From the IMG/VR virus record IMGVR_UViG_2706794665_000015: DNA of 15,331 bases, one strand, 5' to 3'. Below are positions 1,422 to 12,671 of the stretch, piece after piece (position 1 is the stretch's first letter; each line of letters opens with the position of its first letter). Position numbers and translations under genes: made by a program. The notes below the pieces were generated by a model. The model worked only from the letters and a program-made list of their open reading frames with translations, was not told the origin of the DNA and did no database searches. The stretch is from a virus (lineage: Duplodnaviria; Heunggongvirae; Uroviricota; Caudoviricetes).

Positions 1422-3893
1422 TTAAAAATCAGCCTGATTTGGGATCAGTTTTTGCCAGATAGCTGAAACGTATTTTGCCTGGTAACGGGCGTCATCAAGT
1501 GCATTATGGCGCTCACCTTCGAATGGAATAGCCGTTCTGGCATCGAAGTCTATGGCTTTCCCCAGCTCAACGATTGTGCGTACATCGCGATCGTTGTAGT
1601 AACGCCACGGGCAGGGGATCCCCTGCCGTTCGTATGAACGGCGCAAAATCGTGTTGTCGAAGTTGGCTCCATTTCCCCAAACCTGAACAAAAAATTCACC
1701 GGAGTTTTCGTCGATAAATTCCCGCAATTGTAACAGTGCATCATCTAACGGGATTTCATCGGTCATAATGGCAGATTGCGCTTCGCGTGATTGCTTAAGC
1801 CACCATTTAATGGTGTCCCGATCAATGACTCCGCCAGCAGTTTCCAGATCGATAGTCTTACTAAATTCCGGTCCCATATCTCCGGTTTGCGGATCGAAAA
1901 ATATTGCACCTATTGAGATGATCGGGGCATCAGGATTTTTTCCCATGGTTTCAAGGTCGATCATTAGATGGTCACACGTCCTGCTGGTGGATGTGATTTC
2001 TTGATGACCGTTCACCTTAATTGAGTGATCTGCCGTCTCGCCAGTTTCATTATCGCTATCGTGATGCTGATTGCCGCCAGTGTTCTCCTTGTGTGGATGT
2101 TCAGCGCCTTCCATTTCCTCCGGATCATCTTCCTGAACTTCAGGCTGATACTCTTCATCGAATGTTTCCTGGTATGTTGCGTCGCCCATTACCGCGCCAC
2201 AATCAGGGCAGTTGCCGCCGCCGGTCTGACCGCAGGCGGTGCAGACTTTTTCCACTTCCTGTTGCGCCACTGATTCAGGCTGTTTCGTTTCTGGCTCGTT
2301 TTGTAACGCATTTGGGCTGTTTTGTTCCGCTTTCTGGTCGTTCTGTTCCGTTTCTTGCTGGTTCTGGTTCACAGAATCGCGGGTCTGGTTCCCCTTAACC
2401 CATTTCGGATCATTCGGGTCGCTAATCCCTTCAACAAATTCACCACGTGATACTGCAAGCAGTTCATCGGCGTCAGGCTGGCTGATATTGGCTGCCTGCA
2501 TAATTTTGTTTACTTCGTCAGCGGTAACTTTTACTGACCCTGGTTGTGCGGTCGTGTCAGATGCACCAGTATTTTGTTGTGAACCTGAGTATGTACCGTT
2601 TTTGCGGGCGAAATATTCTTCTTTCGTGATTTCAGTAGCCCCGGCAGACAGCGCCTTATCCAGACCAGAAAGTTTGTTTGCGCGACCGTATTTTTCGCCA
2701 TCCTTGTCGGTGAAGAGGAAGTAGAACGGCCCCTCACGTTCTACAGATGGTTCGACTTCCACTTTGCATTCGGTTTTTTCGTTGTCCGGAATTGCCGTTT
2801 CCACTGCATCAGTTTCTGGTACTGGCGACGAGAGAGTATCAGTTGCGCTCTGATTTGTTCCTTCATCTTCAAACACGCCCTTTGTAGTCAGGTATTCAGT
2901 AATGTATTTGTTCAGTGCCACAGGGTCTTTGTGAATGTCGATCGGACGTTCACGGACAAGGCCAAAAATAGTCTGGCGGTCGTAGCGAAGGGCATCAGGC
3001 TGTTTGCGCATTGATGCCGAGATACGCTTCCAGTCTTCGCGGTCGTTGTCGATAACTTCATTTTTTGCCCAGCGATGGATGCTGCCGTCAATGTTTCCGG
3101 CATCCACATCACCAGGCCAGAGAGCGTAGGCCAGTTCGTCATCCAGTGTTTTCCATGTCTGCTTGTATTCGCGATGAATGGCAGCAATGACCGGGTTGAT
3201 TTTTCCTGTTGAATTTTCAGTGTGCTGTTGATTGGCTCTGGCGCGGGCGAGATCAACAACAGACGTGTATTTTCCGGCTTCCTTGCGTTCACCTTCGCGA
3301 CGTTTTTTCCAGATGCGCATCTCTGCCTGAATTTCGGGCCATTTGGCACCAGGCTTACATTTATGCTTAACCCACCCGATGGCATGCAGCTTAAGCTCCG
3401 GATACATGGCGTTAACTTCTGGCATTTTCATCAACGCTTCAACGATATGTCCGTCGAATGTTGCCATGTCTTCCTGCAACAGTTCCTGCGCGCTAATCAC
3501 CATATCAACGGTGATGTTTTCACATGTGTCGAACTTAACCATGACAGCGTTCTGTACTTCAGGGGCCAGCTTGTCAAAAGTGACGTTCATCGGATCTGAT
3601 TCAGTCTCAACCGGGACAAAGGAAGCAGACGCCTCATCCCAGCGGTTTTCCTGCATATATTCAGCATCCCAGGAATCTAGGGCAGGGCGGGGTATACCGG
3701 GTTTATCCTCGCAGACAAGAAATTTATAAGCGCAGTCCTGAGCAGCCGGATAATGTTCCAGGAATTGCCAGTGAAATTTTGCGCGGGCGCGACGTTCATC
3801 ACCGGCTTCAATGGCAGTGGCTACAGCGACTGCACCTTCTTCCTTTATTGCCTGTTCGTCCGGAATGGCGGCGCAAATAAAGACTTTACTCAT
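1422..3893 (-). CDS. Prophage exonuclease, 823 aa: N-terminal domain of unknown function, acidic low-complexity linker with a Cys4 ribbon, C-terminal DEDDh (DnaQ-like) 3'-5' exonuclease domain
   Basis: Long ORF with GAGGT about 8 nt upstream of the ATG at 3893. C-terminal residues show Exo I (MIDLETMG) and Exo III (HNALDDARY) motifs of DEDDh exonucleases. Cys4 motif CTACGQTGGGNCPDCG is encoded near 2181-2250. Position between xis and dicB/ydfD matches the exonuclease slot of Qin-like prophages. Confidence 0.85.
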   Translation of the reverse strand: MSKVFICAAIPDEQAIKEEGAVAVATAIEAGDERRARAKFHWQFLEHYPAAQDCAYKFLVCEDKPGIPRPALDSWDAEYMQENRWDEASASFVPVETESDPMNVTFDKLAPEVQNAVMVKFDTCENITVDMVISAQELLQEDMATFDGHIVEALMKMPEVNAMYPELKLHAIGWVKHKCKPGAKWPEIQAEMRIWKKRREGERKEAGKYTSVVDLARARANQQHTENSTGKINPVIAAIHREYKQTWKTLDDELAYALWPGDVDAGNIDGSIHRWAKNEVIDNDREDWKRISASMRKQPDALRYDRQTIFGLVRERPIDIHKDPVALNKYITEYLTTKGVFEDEGTNQSATDTLSSPVPETDAVETAIPDNEKTECKVEVEPSVEREGPFYFLFTDKDGEKYGRANKLSGLDKALSAGATEITKEEYFARKNGTYSGSQQNTGASDTTAQPGSVKVTADEVNKIMQAANISQPDADELLAVSRGEFVEGISDPNDPKWVKGNQTRDSVNQNQQETEQNDQKAEQNSPNALQNEPETKQPESVAQQEVEKVCTACGQTGGGNCPDCGAVMGDATYQETFDEEYQPEVQEDDPEEMEGAEHPHKENTGGNQHHDSDNETGETADHSIKVNGHQEITSTSRTCDHLMIDLETMGKNPDAPIISIGAIFFDPQTGDMGPEFSKTIDLETAGGVIDRDTIKWWLKQSREAQSAIMTDEIPLDDALLQLREFIDENSGEFFVQVWGNGANFDNTILRRSYERQGIPCPWRYYNDRDVRTIVELGKAIDFDARTAIPFEGERHNALDDARYQAKYVSAIWQKLIPNQADF

Positions 3894-3985
3894 TTTGTTT
3901 TACCTCATTACAGATTTAAGGGTGAACAAATCCCTGCCATTGCTGGCATATAAGAATGAAACCGGATATTTATTACGGAACTGTT

Positions 3986-4177
3986 TTAAAGACCTGCCGG
4001 GATTTCGTTATTATCCTGGTGAATAACTTTATCGACCGGGTAACAGTTACCGGGAATTTTCTGTTCGGTTGCTGCAGTCACACACTCCTGCATTGTCCTG
4101 TGAACACTGACTGCAATATCAACTGGCTCTCCGGAAACAAGAAAAACTGTCAGAACAAGTGCAAATGCTGTATTCAT
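3986..4177 (-). CDS. ydfD: YdfD-like small lysis protein (63 aa, N-terminal signal/TM segment)
   Basis: Start chosen at the internal Met (MNTAFALVLTVFLVSG...) because AAGGA lies 8 nt upstream on the minus strand and its ATG overlaps the dicB stop (ATGA). Hydrophobic N-terminus; length and position downstream of dicB match my recollection of Qin YdfD. The ORF track's longer 81-aa version has no RBS. Confidence 0.65.
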   Translation of the reverse strand: MNTAFALVLTVFLVSGEPVDIAVSVHRTMQECVTAATEQKIPGNCYPVDKVIHQDNNEIPAGL

Positions 4178-4362
4178 TGTGCACATCCTTTTTGTATCGG
4201 ACGTAAACGGGCCAGCATTGAAAGAATGCATATTTTATTTAATAACTCCCGTTCGTGTTTTCTCTTGTTAATGGCATCTTCAGTAAATACAGGGTTACTG
4301 ATAGTGACACCAATTTCAAAACAACCTTCAGACGTATTAACGTTTGGTAATAACGTTTCCAT
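4174..4362 (-). CDS. dicB: DicB cell-division inhibitor (62 aa)
   Basis: Start at the internal Met of the 97-aa track ORF, preceded by GAGGA with a 7-nt spacer. The product METLLPNVNTSEGCFEIGVTISNPVFTEDAINKRKHERELLNKICILSMLARLRPIQKGCAQ closely matches my recollection of E. coli DicB and lies about 175 nt downstream of DicF, as in Qin. Confidence 0.75.
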   Translation of the reverse strand: METLLPNVNTSEGCFEIGVTISNPVFTEDAINKRKHERELLNKICILSMLARLRPIQKGCAQ

Positions 4363-4536
4363 TATCGCGTCCTCAACAATGAATTTTGTGATGCGGTGCC
4401 TGGTGCCTCCAGGTGACGTTAACCAGTTAACAATTAACGCCGGATACAGAGAATCCACCCATAACACTGTTTTTGGTTTTAACTGTTCCGCGTGCGCTGA
4501 GCCGCATTCACCGCATCACAAAATTCACTTTAAAAA

Positions 4537-8878: not shown

Positions 8879-9153
8879 NNNNNNNNNNNNNNNNNNNNNN
8901 NNNNNNNNNNNNNNNNNNNNNNNNNNNNNNNNNNNNNNNNNNNNNNNNNNNNNNNNNNNNNNNNNNNNNNNNNNNNNNNNNNNNNNNNNNNNNNNNNNNN
9001 NNNNNNNNNNNNNNNNNNNNNNNNNNNNNNNNNNNNNNNNNNNNNNNNNNNNNNNNNNNNNNNNNNNNNNNNNNNNNNNNNNNNNNNNNNNNNNNNNNNN
9101 NNNNNNNNNNNNNNNNNNNNNNNNNNNNNNNNNNNNNNNNNNNNNNNNNNNNN
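8879..9153. other. Run of 275 N (assembly gap or masked sequence)
   Basis: Uninterrupted N characters; true length and content unknown. Confidence 1.
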
Positions 9154-9819: not shown

Positions 9820-10112
9820 GGGTCAGAGTTTATATTGCCGGTCCAATGACGGGATATGAAAATTTCAACCGTGAGGCGTTTCACAAGGCGGAAGAGGAAC
9901 TGAAACGGGAAGGGCATACCGTCTTAAACCCGGCAGTACTTCCGGACGGGCTGACACAGCCGCACTACATGGATATTTGCATGGCAATGATTCGTTGTGT
10001 GGATGCGATTTACATGCTGAATGGCTGGCAGCGGTCAGCGGGCGCTAAGGCAGAGCTGGCACTGGCGGAGAAACTGGGGCATGCAGTGATTTATCAGGAG
10101 GTGGCTCAATGA
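9816..10112 (+). CDS. DUF4406-like protein (nucleoside 2-deoxyribosyltransferase-like fold), 98 aa
   Basis: GTG start at 9816 with GGAGG upstream, needed to include the conserved VYIAGPMTG glycine-rich loop; start overlaps the upstream stop. Family call is from recalled motif. Confidence 0.55.
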   Translation: MRVRVYIAGPMTGYENFNREAFHKAEEELKREGHTVLNPAVLPDGLTQPHYMDICMAMIRCVDAIYMLNGWQRSAGAKAELALAEKLGHAVIYQEVAQ

Positions 10113-10659: not shown

Positions 10660-10910
10660 NNNNNNNNNNNNNNNNNNNNNNNNNNNNNNNNNNNNNNNNN
10701 NNNNNNNNNNNNNNNNNNNNNNNNNNNNNNNNNNNNNNNNNNNNNNNNNNNNNNNNNNNNNNNNNNNNNNNNNNNNNNNNNNNNNNNNNNNNNNNNNNNN
10801 NNNNNNNNNNNNNNNNNNNNNNNNNNNNNNNNNNNNNNNNNNNNNNNNNNNNNNNNNNNNNNNNNNNNNNNNNNNNNNNNNNNNNNNNNNNNNNNNNNNN
10901 NNNNNNNNNN
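10660..10910. other. Run of 251 N (assembly gap or masked sequence)
   Basis: Uninterrupted N characters. Confidence 1.
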
Positions 10911-10993
10911 CTCTGTTAAAAATTTAATCCTTAACCGGAGGGATTTCTGCACCCTCAGAACATCAGGAGGCCGCCCGAAAGGGCGGTAGTTAA

Positions 10994-11176
10994 ATGCGAA
11001 AGTTTAAAATAATTATTGAAACGGGAATAGCCGGTGGAGATTTCGAGGATGAATTCGAAGTGGATGATGATGCGACGCCTGATGAAATACATGACGAAGC
11101 AAAAGATATTTTCTTTAACTACTGCAATTACTCATATCACGAAATAAAAGACGAAGAGGAAGAGCAAAATGGCTGA
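10994..11176 (+). CDS. Small highly acidic hypothetical protein (60 aa, about one third Asp/Glu)
   Basis: ATG at 10994; A+T-rich; 20 acidic residues against 5 Lys/Arg; followed by overlapping downstream genes. Confidence 0.5.
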   Translation: MRKFKIIIETGIAGGDFEDEFEVDDDATPDEIHDEAKDIFFNYCNYSYHEIKDEEEEQNG

Positions 11177-11345
11177 TTTTGGTTCAATTAAATACAACGT
11201 CAGTTTTGAAGCATGGCATGAACTGTTAATGGACTATGCAGAGTTACGTGGTGGCAGTGCTGCTGATGCTGAAGCATGGCGTGATGATTATGAAGCAGGA
11301 AAAACTCCGGTCGAAGCATATTGTGATGAGTGGGGCGATGAATGA
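11169..11345 (+). CDS. Small acidic hypothetical protein (58 aa); not in the supplied ORF track (under 60 aa)
   Basis: ATG at 11169 overlaps the upstream stop (ATGGCTGA), GAGGAA upstream; its stop overlaps the next gene's ATG (ATGA at 11342-11345). Confidence 0.5.
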   Translation: MADFGSIKYNVSFEAWHELLMDYAELRGGSAADAEAWRDDYEAGKTPVEAYCDEWGDE

Positions 11346-11857
11346 GCGAGATTAATTATCAGGAAGGGCATGAAACGGCAGGGCAGGCAAAACCAGTTGC
11401 ATGGCGATATCGCTACGTGAAAAAAGACGTTACAGACTTTCAGGGGAAGCCGTGGGCTGGTGACTGGAAATATGTACCGACAAAAGAGGATTGTAACGAC
11501 AGGCCGAACTATGAAATTCAGGCCTTATTCATCGGCCCGCCAGTCCCGGTGACATCAGAAGGACTGGTTAAAGCCGTGCGCTTTTATGAACAGGTAAAGC
11601 GTGAGAATCCGCCAGTCGAAACAGGAGCATGGAAGGATGCTGTTGACTGGGTGCTCAGAGAGGCCTGCTGCGCTGCCATTCTGGGTAAAGCCGACAATCC
11701 ACCAGCATCCGGCAATCAGGTTAGCGAATTAACAATGTGGGTTAAACGACTGGTCAGTCAACTGAAAAAAGCTCAGCCGGACTGCAAATTACCGGAGAAG
11801 GCGATGGATTACCTGAAACGAAATGGACTGATAAGCGTGGAGGATGTTTTACGATGA
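11342..11857 (+). CDS. Hypothetical protein (171 aa)
   Basis: Translationally coupled to the upstream small gene; clean ORF. Confidence 0.55.
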   Translation: MSEINYQEGHETAGQAKPVAWRYRYVKKDVTDFQGKPWAGDWKYVPTKEDCNDRPNYEIQALFIGPPVPVTSEGLVKAVRFYEQVKRENPPVETGAWKDAVDWVLREACCAAILGKADNPPASGNQVSELTMWVKRLVSQLKKAQPDCKLPEKAMDYLKRNGLISVEDVLR

Positions 11858-11977
11858 ATATTTAGACTAAAGAGTTTGTAACGCTATGTAAGTGATTTTT
11901 TCTGGTTTAGATATTTATATGTCCGGCCAAATTGAGGTGTGTTTAAATGTAATTGCACATTGATTGTAGGGGGAATA

Positions 11978-12240: not shown

Positions 12241-12359
12241 AACTGCGGGTGCTTGAGGCTATCTGTCTCAGGCATGAACACCAAAAGGCAGATAGAGAAA
12301 AGCCCCAGTTAACATTACGCGTCCTGCAAGACGCTTAACATTAATCTGAGGCCATATCT

Positions 12360-12419
12360 ATGCGACACATAGAGATTAGCCTCTTACGGACCGAAAGGTC
12401 AAGGAGAAGCAGGCTATGA
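12360..12419 (+). CDS. Short upstream ORF (19 codons) ending in ATGA overlap with hok; mok-like coupling element
   Basis: ATG at 12360 with GAGG upstream; its TGA (12417-12419) overlaps the hok ATG (12416-12418). Confidence 0.3.
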   Translation: MRHIEISLLRTERSRRSRL

Positions 12420-12571
12420 AGCAGCAAAAGGCGATGTTAATCGCCCTGATCGTCATCTGTTTAACCGTCATAGTGACGGCACTGGTAACGAGGAAAGACC
12501 TCTGCGAGGTACGAATCCGAACCGGCCAGACGGAGGTCGCTGTCTTCACAGCTTACGAACCTGAGGAGTAA
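12416..12571 (+). CDS. hokD: Hok-family type I toxin (HokD/RelF-like), 51 aa
   Basis: Product MKQQKAMLIALIVICLTVIVTALVTRKDLCEVRIRTGQTEVAVFTAYEPEE has the Hok signature (single TM helix then RKDLCE…); GGAG 7 nt upstream. Coordinates may be off by 1 (hand-indexed). Confidence 0.85.
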   Translation: MKQQKAMLIALIVICLTVIVTALVTRKDLCEVRIRTGQTEVAVFTAYEPEE

Positions 12572-12641
12572 GAGACCCGGCGAGGGAGAAATCCCTCGCC
12601 ACCTCTGATGTGGCAGGCATTCTCAACGCACCCGCACTTAA

Positions 12642-12671
12642 CCCGCTTCGGCGGGTTTTTGTTTTTATTTT
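12642..12671 (+). terminator. Rho-independent terminator of the hok transcript
   Basis: CCCGC-TTCG-GCGGG hairpin followed by TTTTTGTTTTTATTTT; preceded by a second perfect 9-bp stem (GGCGAGGGA-GAAA-TCCCTCGCC, 12579-12600) like the 3' fold-back element of hok mRNAs. Confidence 0.7.

Follow-up and report, generated by a model that had tools for sequence, protein, structure and literature searches.

The window, the whole 15,331-nt stretch of DNA that was analysed, comes from an E. coli prophage of the Rac/lambdoid type. It contains an integrase, a RecE-like exonuclease, cI/cro-like regulators and a YdaT-family gene, continues with a DnaT-like O gene, a P gene and the DUF1627, DUF977, DUF4406, Ead/Ea22-like and 118-aa genes, and then reaches ORF1, ORF2 and a 171-aa gene (ORF3), which are followed by hokD/sok, rem, DUF968, RusA and a Q-like antiterminator. 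This gene order agrees with the nin-region placement given in the first-pass annotation, as ORF1 and ORF2 lie within the variable, nin-equivalent part of the early-right operon, a stretch with replication genes on one side and the hok/Q region on the other. Two parts of the window are masked with N (8879–9153 and 10660–10910), and the second of these was read from a near-identical RefSeq chromosome (locus L001). The features at the locus are as follows.

10965–10970, + strand: AGGAGG, a Shine-Dalgarno-like hexamer read directly from the DNA, 23 nt 5′ of the ORF1 ATG
10970–10987, + strand: GNRA-loop hairpin G-CCGCCC-GAAA-GGGCGG-U, a structured spacer between the Shine-Dalgarno sequence and the ATG (ΔG −14.4 kcal/mol)
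10994–11176, + strand: ORF1, 60 aa, DUF7167 (PF23768, PHROG 1997), from Pfam, PHROG, AlphaFold and pN/pS
11156–11159, + strand: GAGG within the codons of the ORF1 acidic tail, read directly, 9 nt 5′ of the ORF2 ATG
11169–11345, + strand: ORF2, 58 aa, a PHROG 519 three-helix module with no Pfam family, from PHROG, AlphaFold and pN/pS
11342–11857, + strand: ORF3, 171 aa, PHROG 660 (unknown function), ATGA-coupled to ORF2 and usually third in the cassette of E. coli prophages

The two consecutive, coupled reading frames described at first were confirmed at 10994–11176 and 11169–11345, with an 8-nt overlap, ATGGCTGA, between ORF1 and ORF2, and an ATGA overlap between ORF2 and ORF3. ORF1 and ORF2 are co-translated within a three-gene cassette, in which the GAGG at 11156–11159 is likely to be the Shine-Dalgarno sequence of the coupled ORF2. 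ORF1 has no alternative upstream start because an in-frame TAA directly precedes its ATG.

Both products are as acidic as had been described. The 60 residues of ORF1 include 20 Asp/Glu against 5 Lys/Arg, together with 8 aromatics, and the 58 residues of ORF2 include 15 Asp/Glu against 4 Lys/Arg, together with 9 aromatics; the proposed calculation of isoelectric points gave 4.05 and 4.06, respectively. The combined Asp and Glu fraction is 0.33 in ORF1 and 0.26 in ORF2, compared with 0.10–0.19 in the rest of the 16 annotated proteins of the prophage stretch. The first gene alone had been called A+T-rich. This holds for ORF1, which has a GC content of 0.37 (ORF2, 0.44; whole window, 0.485), but not as a trait of the first gene only, since third-position GC is low in ORF2 as well (0.27, with 0.34 in ORF1 and 0.43–0.49 in the neighbouring genes). 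The low third-position GC in both reading frames makes both of them look like imported AT-rich cassettes.

Purifying selection on ORF1 and ORF2 is strong: pN/pS across E. coli variants was ~0.04 for ORF1 (for example, pS 0.32 and pN 0.013) and ~0.1 for ORF2, and searches with each protein recovered homologues of 37–57% identity in unrelated phage families. The pN/pS values and the distant homologues show that both reading frames are conserved as coding, a check that the first-pass annotation had asked for, and rule out the possibility that they are spurious. RefSeq lists ORF1 as WP_001224662.1 (DUF7167 family protein) and ORF2 as WP_000753058.1 (hypothetical protein). Thus, both are real genes of already catalogued families of unknown function, and both are very common in E. 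coli.

The hairpin between AGGAGG and the ORF1 start

The hairpin CCGCCC-GAAA-GGGCGG that had been noticed at 10971–10986, between AGGAGG and the ATG at 10994, is present as described and is extended by a G10970–U10987 pair. The + strand of the window contains two 6-bp GNRA-loop stems in all, this one included, where shuffled sequences predict 0.085. In the minimum-free-energy fold, AGGAGG is unpaired except for its last G, and the 81-nt fold has a z-score of −1.7. The hairpin lies within a 93-nt spacer in which there was no promoter or terminator call and no T-run after the stem, and no Rfam family matched it; readings as a terminator or a promoter were rejected on these results. Judged against the layout of the lambda nut sites, no boxA-like sequence was seen upstream, and a nut/boxB-like role was rejected on this basis and on the missing Rfam match.

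In seven IMG/VR loci, AGGAGG and the stem stay with ORF1 despite a replaced upstream flank. The stem is conserved in most loci, with C-to-T changes that keep G-U pairs, and in locus L179 (CTGCCA-GAAA-TGGTGG) all six pairs are kept through a compensatory change from C-G to A-U, which is the only compensatory pair seen. Two loci depart from this pattern: the stem of L176 is weakened by an A-C mismatch, and that of L177 is largely lost to a 2 × 2 internal loop, while its 3′ arm reads GGGAGG, a conventional Shine-Dalgarno sequence 7 nt from the ATG. A hairpin of this kind is missing from distant DUF7167 genes, each of which is coupled directly to the gene before it.

The most likely reading of this element, from its geometry, is a split ribosome-binding site. 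In such sites, the Shine-Dalgarno sequence and the start codon are separated by more than 15 nt, and a stable hairpin contained entirely within this interval restores the spacing to ~5–11 nt; in phage T4 the spacing is reduced from 22 to 5 nt for gene 38 and from 27 to 11 nt for gene 25 (PMC3014915). Here, AGGAGG ends 23 nt before the ATG, and a hairpin of 16–18 nt leaves 6–7 nt. The arrangement is therefore like that of T4 genes 38 and 25 in having a distant strong Shine-Dalgarno sequence and an intervening stable hairpin that would restore the spacing; it differs from them in that the site is predicted and in that, among its natural variants, some have a weaker stem or gain a proximal Shine-Dalgarno sequence. 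Folding most likely takes the 16–18 nt of the hairpin out of the spacer and would bring AGGAGG to within ~6–7 nt of the ORF1 start. If this is true, the site is an additional example of a split ribosome-binding site outside the T-even phages.

The two stem-weakening variants and the proximal Shine-Dalgarno sequence of L177 suggest that the stem may be dispensable and could instead mask a weak proximal Shine-Dalgarno sequence. We consider it possible, though doubtful, that the hairpin has such a role, its 3′ arm (GGGCGG) hiding the weak proximal sequence and lowering ORF1 translation, or that it is not translational at all and is an RNA-processing or RNA-stabilising site or the remnant of a recombination joint. 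Several mosaic junctions do fall at or inside the hairpin, but AGGAGG and the stem travel with ORF1 over differing flanks; similarly, the z-score of the fold is modest and the GGGAGG arm of L177 appears where the stem is largely lost, but the geometry fits the T4 split sites, and the spacer has no T-run, terminator, promoter or Rfam match. A split ribosome-binding site remains our preferred reading.

Families and predicted folds of the two proteins

ORF1 matches the Pfam family DUF7167 (PF23768) with 55.1 bits, well placed against a gathering cut-off of 24.4 bits, with residues 2–53 aligned to profile positions 1–60, and it matches PHROG 1997 over positions 1–57 (E = 9e-31). Net charge ranged from −10 to −18 in all 18 of the ORF1-family members compared, which include proteins from Enterococcus and Pseudomonas phages. 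Since this extreme acidity is kept throughout the family, the charge of ORF1 probably matters. Glu9, Glu22, Asp25, Ile32, Ala36 and Cys44 are invariant in the family alignment.

Structures of ORF1 and ORF2 were predicted by AlphaFold2 from alignments built from the homologues that were found. The model of ORF1 (mean pLDDT 77.5) consists of a β-β-α-β core with strands at residues 2–9, 16–23 and 45–51 and a helix at residues 29–39; the predicted core spans ~50 residues, and the acidic tail is predicted to be disordered. Resemblance of this fold to the anti-CRISPR proteins AcrIE2, AcrIC9 and AcrIIC3 is weak, with scores that are within the noise for 50-residue folds, and the same noise level applies to the T4 antitoxin Dmd. 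ORF1 differs from Dmd and the small anti-CRISPRs in having no sequence similarity to them and no nearby aca gene. With T7 Gp2, an inhibitor of host RNA polymerase (PDB 2lmc/2wnm), the predicted fold would at most share its class. Arg56 and Arg58 have a functional role in Gp2, and the ORF1 strand that would match the strand carrying them has no arginine pair in its sequence. Homology between the ORF1 family and Gp2 was rejected, with an hhalign probability of 0.3% and an E-value of 0.19. As modelled, ORF1 resembles small phage inhibitors no more closely than in its class of fold.

ORF2 matches PHROG 519 (E = 3.3e-22) at positions 76–137 of 143, the C-terminal half of the profile. The N-terminal part of that profile probably derives from read-through fusions with an upstream DUF1187 gene, as in the protein P0153. 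No Pfam family covers ORF2, and no consistent Pfam match was obtained among 102 diverse relatives. A full HMMER search with an ORF2-family profile gave 149 clusters at 50% identity, nearly all of them stand-alone proteins of 50–70 aa. ORF2-like modules are also found joined C-terminally to GemA and to a ParB-like protein and N-terminally to a RIIB-like protein, and one 300-aa protein carries the module twice. The AlphaFold2 model of ORF2 (mean pLDDT 80.4), a module of ~50 residues, has helices at residues 13–27, 34–42 and 47–55, and what it matches are unspecific three-helix folds, for example UBA domains and the lid domains of AAA+ proteins.

In the broad ORF2 family, the best-conserved and nearly invariant positions are Trp16, Trp37 and Gly44. 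Its members carry a median net charge of −7, but the pI exceeds 6 in 8 of the 105 that were compared. The retention of Trp16, Trp37 and Gly44, together with these non-acidic members, suggests that the ORF2 family keeps its fold and not a fixed acidic pattern. The name 'antitoxin' on one Kuttervirus homologue of ORF2 is an automatic label without support.

Distribution and genomic context

Of 5426 complete E. coli genomes, 1860 (34%) carry ORF1 DNA and 2061 (38%) carry ORF2 DNA. A protein identical to ORF1 occurs in Stx2a-converting phages and in phage ArgO145. At least 80% of a 990-bp stretch spanning ORF1 to ORF3 (window positions 10911–11900) was found in 778 E. coli genomes. Among close E. 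coli relatives in IMG/VR, the order ORF1-ORF2-ORF3 was seen in ~80 of the 81 loci retrieved with ORF1 and in 78 of the 80 retrieved with ORF2. Nearly every one of the 80 closest IMG/VR loci has ORF3 3′ of ORF2, and other genes take its place in L176 and L177.

Outside this setting, the two families are found separately, and relatives of ORF1 stand alone in virulent phages of Enterococcus, Klebsiella and Pseudomonas. A scan of genome contigs for ORF1 relatives gave three loci only. DUF7167 genes occur without ORF2 in a Klebsiella lambdoid phage; in Klebsiella Guernseyvirinae, overlapping the beginning of a DUF2800/PD-(D/E)XK nuclease gene and adjoining an SSB/annealing gene and a polymerase gene; in a virulent Enterococcus Kochikohdavirus, after a DUF3850/ASCH gene; and in a Phapecoctavirus and a Pseudomonas jumbo-type phage. 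Guilt by association was rejected for ORF1, as the 'exonuclease' neighbours in the Klebsiella (DUF2800/PD-(D/E)XK) and Enterococcus (DUF3850/ASCH) phages are unrelated to each other. Because the neighbours of DUF7167 genes in distant phages are inconsistent, genomic context gives no target for ORF1.

Relatives of ORF2 occur without ORF1 in Ackermannviridae, directly 3′ of the major capsid gene, and in a Jilinvirus. They are also present on 554 plasmids, 516 of them conjugative, mostly as one protein with 84.5% identity. The examples listed are of ~60 kb, and the one that was typed is IncI2, which is probably the replicon of most of the conjugative plasmids recovered. The order on the IncI2 plasmid is a CaiF/GrlA regulator, DUF1187, the ORF2 homologue, SPFH, NfeD and type IV secretion genes, with repA adjoining. 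ORF1 was found on 15 plasmid records only.

These distributions qualify the description of ORF1 and ORF2 as a tandem pair. The pair is adjacent, coupled and nearly invariant in close E. coli relatives, but its families are spread apart elsewhere, and their different distributions outside E. coli prophages weaken the idea of a functional pair. From the genomic patterns we conclude that ORF1 and ORF2 are probably two independently mobile modules that were joined in E. coli prophages and would not form an obligate two-part system.

Function of the acidic proteins

The explanation that we favour overall, tentatively and with somewhat less than even confidence, is that ORF1 and ORF2 are two independent accessory modules that act by protein binding, with a split ribosome-binding site ahead of ORF1. 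Judged by size and acidity, neither protein is likely to be an enzyme or a DNA binder. Their size of ~6.5 kDa, the lack of catalytic motifs, a charge unfit for DNA binding, purifying selection, spread on mobile elements and the reuse of the ORF2-type module as a terminal domain together suggest that each most likely acts stoichiometrically, through binding to a partner protein. ORF1, small and acidic, would probably inhibit a protein of the host or of a rival element at a basic surface that binds nucleic acid, in a mode that may be likened to that of T7 Gp2, T4 Dmd or the small anti-CRISPRs. ORF2 would probably be a portable binding or adaptor module, a reading that fits the fusions to GemA, ParB-like and RIIB-like proteins found in other genomes.

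Some observations run against parts of this explanation: aligning the ORF1-family profile with Gp2 gave an insignificant result (0.3%), the neighbours of distant DUF7167 genes are inconsistent, and the ORF2 family has no fixed acidic pattern, 8 of its 105 members not being acidic.

Alternatively, ORF1 and ORF2 could modulate the phage's own DNA transactions, as replication or recombination factors or as host-takeover factors such as inhibitors or regulators of a nuclease or of RNA polymerase in lytic growth, and have no part in counter-defence. Their site just after O/P, DUF1627, DUF977, DUF4406 and Ead/Ea22 would suit such a role, as would the DUF7167 gene of Klebsiella Guernseyvirinae that overlaps a DUF2800/PD-(D/E)XK nuclease gene beside SSB/annealing and polymerase genes; however, this nuclease neighbour is not conserved, and the supposed exonuclease of the Enterococcus phage proved to be a DUF3850/ASCH protein. 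The Gp2-like fold class of ORF1 points in the same direction, but hhalign found no profile similarity to Gp2, and the arginine pair is missing from the strand that matches Arg56/Arg58. Likewise, the ORF2-like modules on GemA and on a ParB-like protein would connect the family with DNA transactions, whereas the ORF2 homologue of Ackermannviridae sits after the major capsid gene. We regard this alternative as unlikely.

The first-pass annotation had proposed that the two proteins are DNA mimics or anti-defence factors, and the computation here neither supports nor refutes that proposal. ORF1 and ORF2 are like Ocr and ArdA in their very low pI, in their dense Asp/Glu (33% and 26%) with interspersed aromatics and in belonging to families of mobile elements; they differ in that the matches listed for them include no solved DNA mimic, either by sequence or by fold. 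The suggested Foldseek comparison with Ocr, ArdA and anti-CRISPR folds gave no confident link to any known family, Ocr and ArdA being absent among the matches listed, and Foldseek against predicted viral structures returned only uncharacterised small phage proteins (best E = 7.5e-3). PDB sequence searches with the family profiles gave chance-level matches only, PADLOC and NCBIfam scans of ORF1–ORF3 gave no match, and the structure and sequence searches together revealed no confident match to an unrelated known family. No aca-type HTH gene lies beside the pair, as ORF3 has no Pfam domain and the upstream 118-aa gene has a weak zinc-ribbon match only.

Searches of the literature for DUF7167, both RefSeq accessions and both PHROGs found no experimental data, and the families are absent from the supplements of the EVADES catalogue (268 anti-defence proteins) and of one accessory-gene screen. 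The searched literature mentions the families once, where AcrHub predicted, by computation alone, that Kuttervirus members of PHROG 519 are anti-CRISPR candidates (PMC9409062).

In the DNA-mimic proposal, one or both proteins would fill the DNA groove of a restriction–modification, CRISPR-Cas, BREX or RecBCD-type enzyme and so shield the induced or superinfecting phage. We place this between unlikely and quite unlikely. The charge is extreme and conserved and aromatics are scattered among the acidic residues, but proteins of ~6.5 kDa would have to form oligomers to mimic more than a few base pairs, and Ocr, ArdA and the solved DNA mimics did not appear among the sequence and fold matches listed. 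The spread over phages, and for ORF2 over conjugative plasmids as well, is typical of anti-restriction genes; however, the ORF2 homologue of IncI2 sits beside repA at the head of a block of transfer genes, behind the CaiF/GrlA regulator, and in the prophage the pair belongs to a delayed-early operon distant from the first-entering end of the phage. The AcrHub scores for PHROG 519 members (PMC9409062) and the weak fold resemblance of ORF1 to AcrIE2, AcrIC9 and AcrIIC3 favour an anti-CRISPR role, against which stand the missing aca-type neighbour and the absence from the 268-protein catalogue and the accessory-gene screen.

It is very unlikely that ORF1, ORF2 and ORF3 act as one unit, such as a complex, a toxin–antitoxin-like module or a prophage exclusion system in which the acidic pair neutralises or regulates ORF3: the three genes are coupled through the ATGGCTGA and ATGA overlaps, are found together in almost every one of the 160 closest IMG/VR loci and share the 990-bp stretch kept to at least 80% in 778 E. 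coli genomes, but other genes lie 3′ of ORF1-ORF2 in L176 and L177, ORF1 and ORF2 are apart in all distant relatives, Pfam, NCBIfam and PADLOC gave no toxin–antitoxin or defence-family match, and two acidic small proteins are combined with an ORF3 that is near neutral and has no recognisable toxin domain. A type II toxin–antitoxin pair, defined by family profiles as a toxin domain with its cognate antitoxin, was likewise not found in Pfam, NCBIfam or PADLOC. The lygF and irsA labels of the Rac record had nothing relevant behind them.

ORF1 and ORF2 are among the commonest uncharacterised genes of E. coli prophages, Stx2a-converting phages included. If either of them inhibits a host defence or a core enzyme, this would give a function to a very widespread family and provide a very small inhibitor scaffold. 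Going further, DUF7167 could be a new family of minimal acidic Gp2/Dmd-like inhibitors of a conserved host nucleic-acid enzyme or immune nuclease, and the ORF2 module a portable counter-defence or host-factor-binding domain of temperate and virulent phages and IncI2 plasmids, the two together making up a counter-defence cassette in about one-third of E. coli genomes and in Stx2a phages; we consider this quite unlikely. The two proteins are reasonable, though not outstanding, candidates for counter-defence or partner screens, chiefly because extreme acidity runs through the whole ORF1 family and because the ORF2 module has spread unusually widely over mobile elements.

ORF1 and ORF2 can also be compared with the mosaic accessory ('moron'-like) genes of lambdoid nin and Ead/Ea22 regions. 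They are like these genes in being small, AT-rich and translationally coupled, in being swapped as cassettes between replication and late-control genes, and in having mosaic joints at the borders of the cassette. Unlike them, ORF1 and ORF2 have relatives far beyond the lambdoid phages, in virulent phages of Gram-positive and Gram-negative hosts and on IncI2 plasmids.

Base composition and upstream boundary of the acidic ORFs

The third-position GC contents of the two small acidic ORFs (window 10994–11345), 0.34 for the DUF7167 gene ORF1 and 0.27 for ORF2, lie far below those of the flanking genes (0.43–0.49) and are consistent with import of both ORFs from a lower-GC mobile-element pool. The window contains two N runs (8879–9153 and 10660–10910), the second of which covers most of the upstream gene encoding WP_000403785.1, a 118-aa protein with a weak zinc-ribbon match. 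The masked sequence at 10660–10910 was taken from L001, an almost identical RefSeq chromosome locus, and the 118-aa gene ends 93 nt before the start of ORF1. In many assemblies, the TAA ahead of the ORF1 ATG is replaced by GAA, and gene callers then extend ORF1 upstream across the hairpin, yielding ‘DUF7167’ proteins of 84–109 aa with N-termini such as MNFIKSLTGGISAPSEHQEAARKGGSE (homologous proteins P0002–P0009 and P0163; related loci L176–L178). These extended N-termini are probably annotation artefacts.

Other contexts of the ORF2-type module and DUF7167

The three-helix module of ORF2 (window 11169–11345; seen also in proteins P0226, P0259, P0266 and P0295 and at loci L182 and L183), which has no family in Pfam, follows the pattern F..W...L...A...G.S.AD.DAW.EDY..G.TP..A and occurs as a fused domain in GemA, ParB-like and RIIB-like proteins. 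A stand-alone homologue, in most cases 84.5% identical, is carried by 554 plasmids, including 516 conjugative ones; the one example typed is IncI2. The plasmid gene order is CaiF/GrlA, DUF1187, ORF2 homologue, SPFH, NfeD and T4SS, and repA adjoins this block.

In two virulent Klebsiella Guernseyvirinae (L002 and L003, positions 3001–4525), a gene for a 454-aa DUF2800/PD-(D/E)XK nuclease overlaps, at its start, with the DUF7167 gene, and genes for a Gp2.5-like SSB and a DNA polymerase adjoin the pair. A 55-aa DUF7167 protein in record ON107243 is wrongly named ‘PD-(D/E)XK phosphodiesterase’.

ORF3 and the hokD/sok region

Features downstream of ORF2 (window coordinates)
11342–11857: ORF3, 171 aa, PHROG 660
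about 12247–12571 (L001 5337–5661): hokD toxin gene and sok, Rfam RF01794
12582: strong tetraloop hairpin after hokD/sok, GAGGGA-GAAA-TCCCTC
12641: strong tetraloop hairpin after hokD/sok, ACCCGC-TTCG-GCGGGT
about 12580–12661 (L001 5670–5751): sub-threshold isrK match directly downstream of hokD

No Pfam domain was recognised in ORF3, whose start overlaps the end of ORF2 in an ATGA that couples the two genes. The Ead/Ea22-like gene at 10109 encodes an N-terminus (MREVNYEALREAA...) similar to the MSEINYQ... of ORF3, as do other genes found in place of ORF3 in related prophages. This likeness suggests common recombination joints at gene starts.

The sok antisense RNA at hokD gave a full-length match to its Rfam family (106.7 bits). 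The isrK match scored 26.6 bits against a gathering score of 50 (E 0.004); isrK is an Hfq-binding sRNA from a Salmonella prophage.
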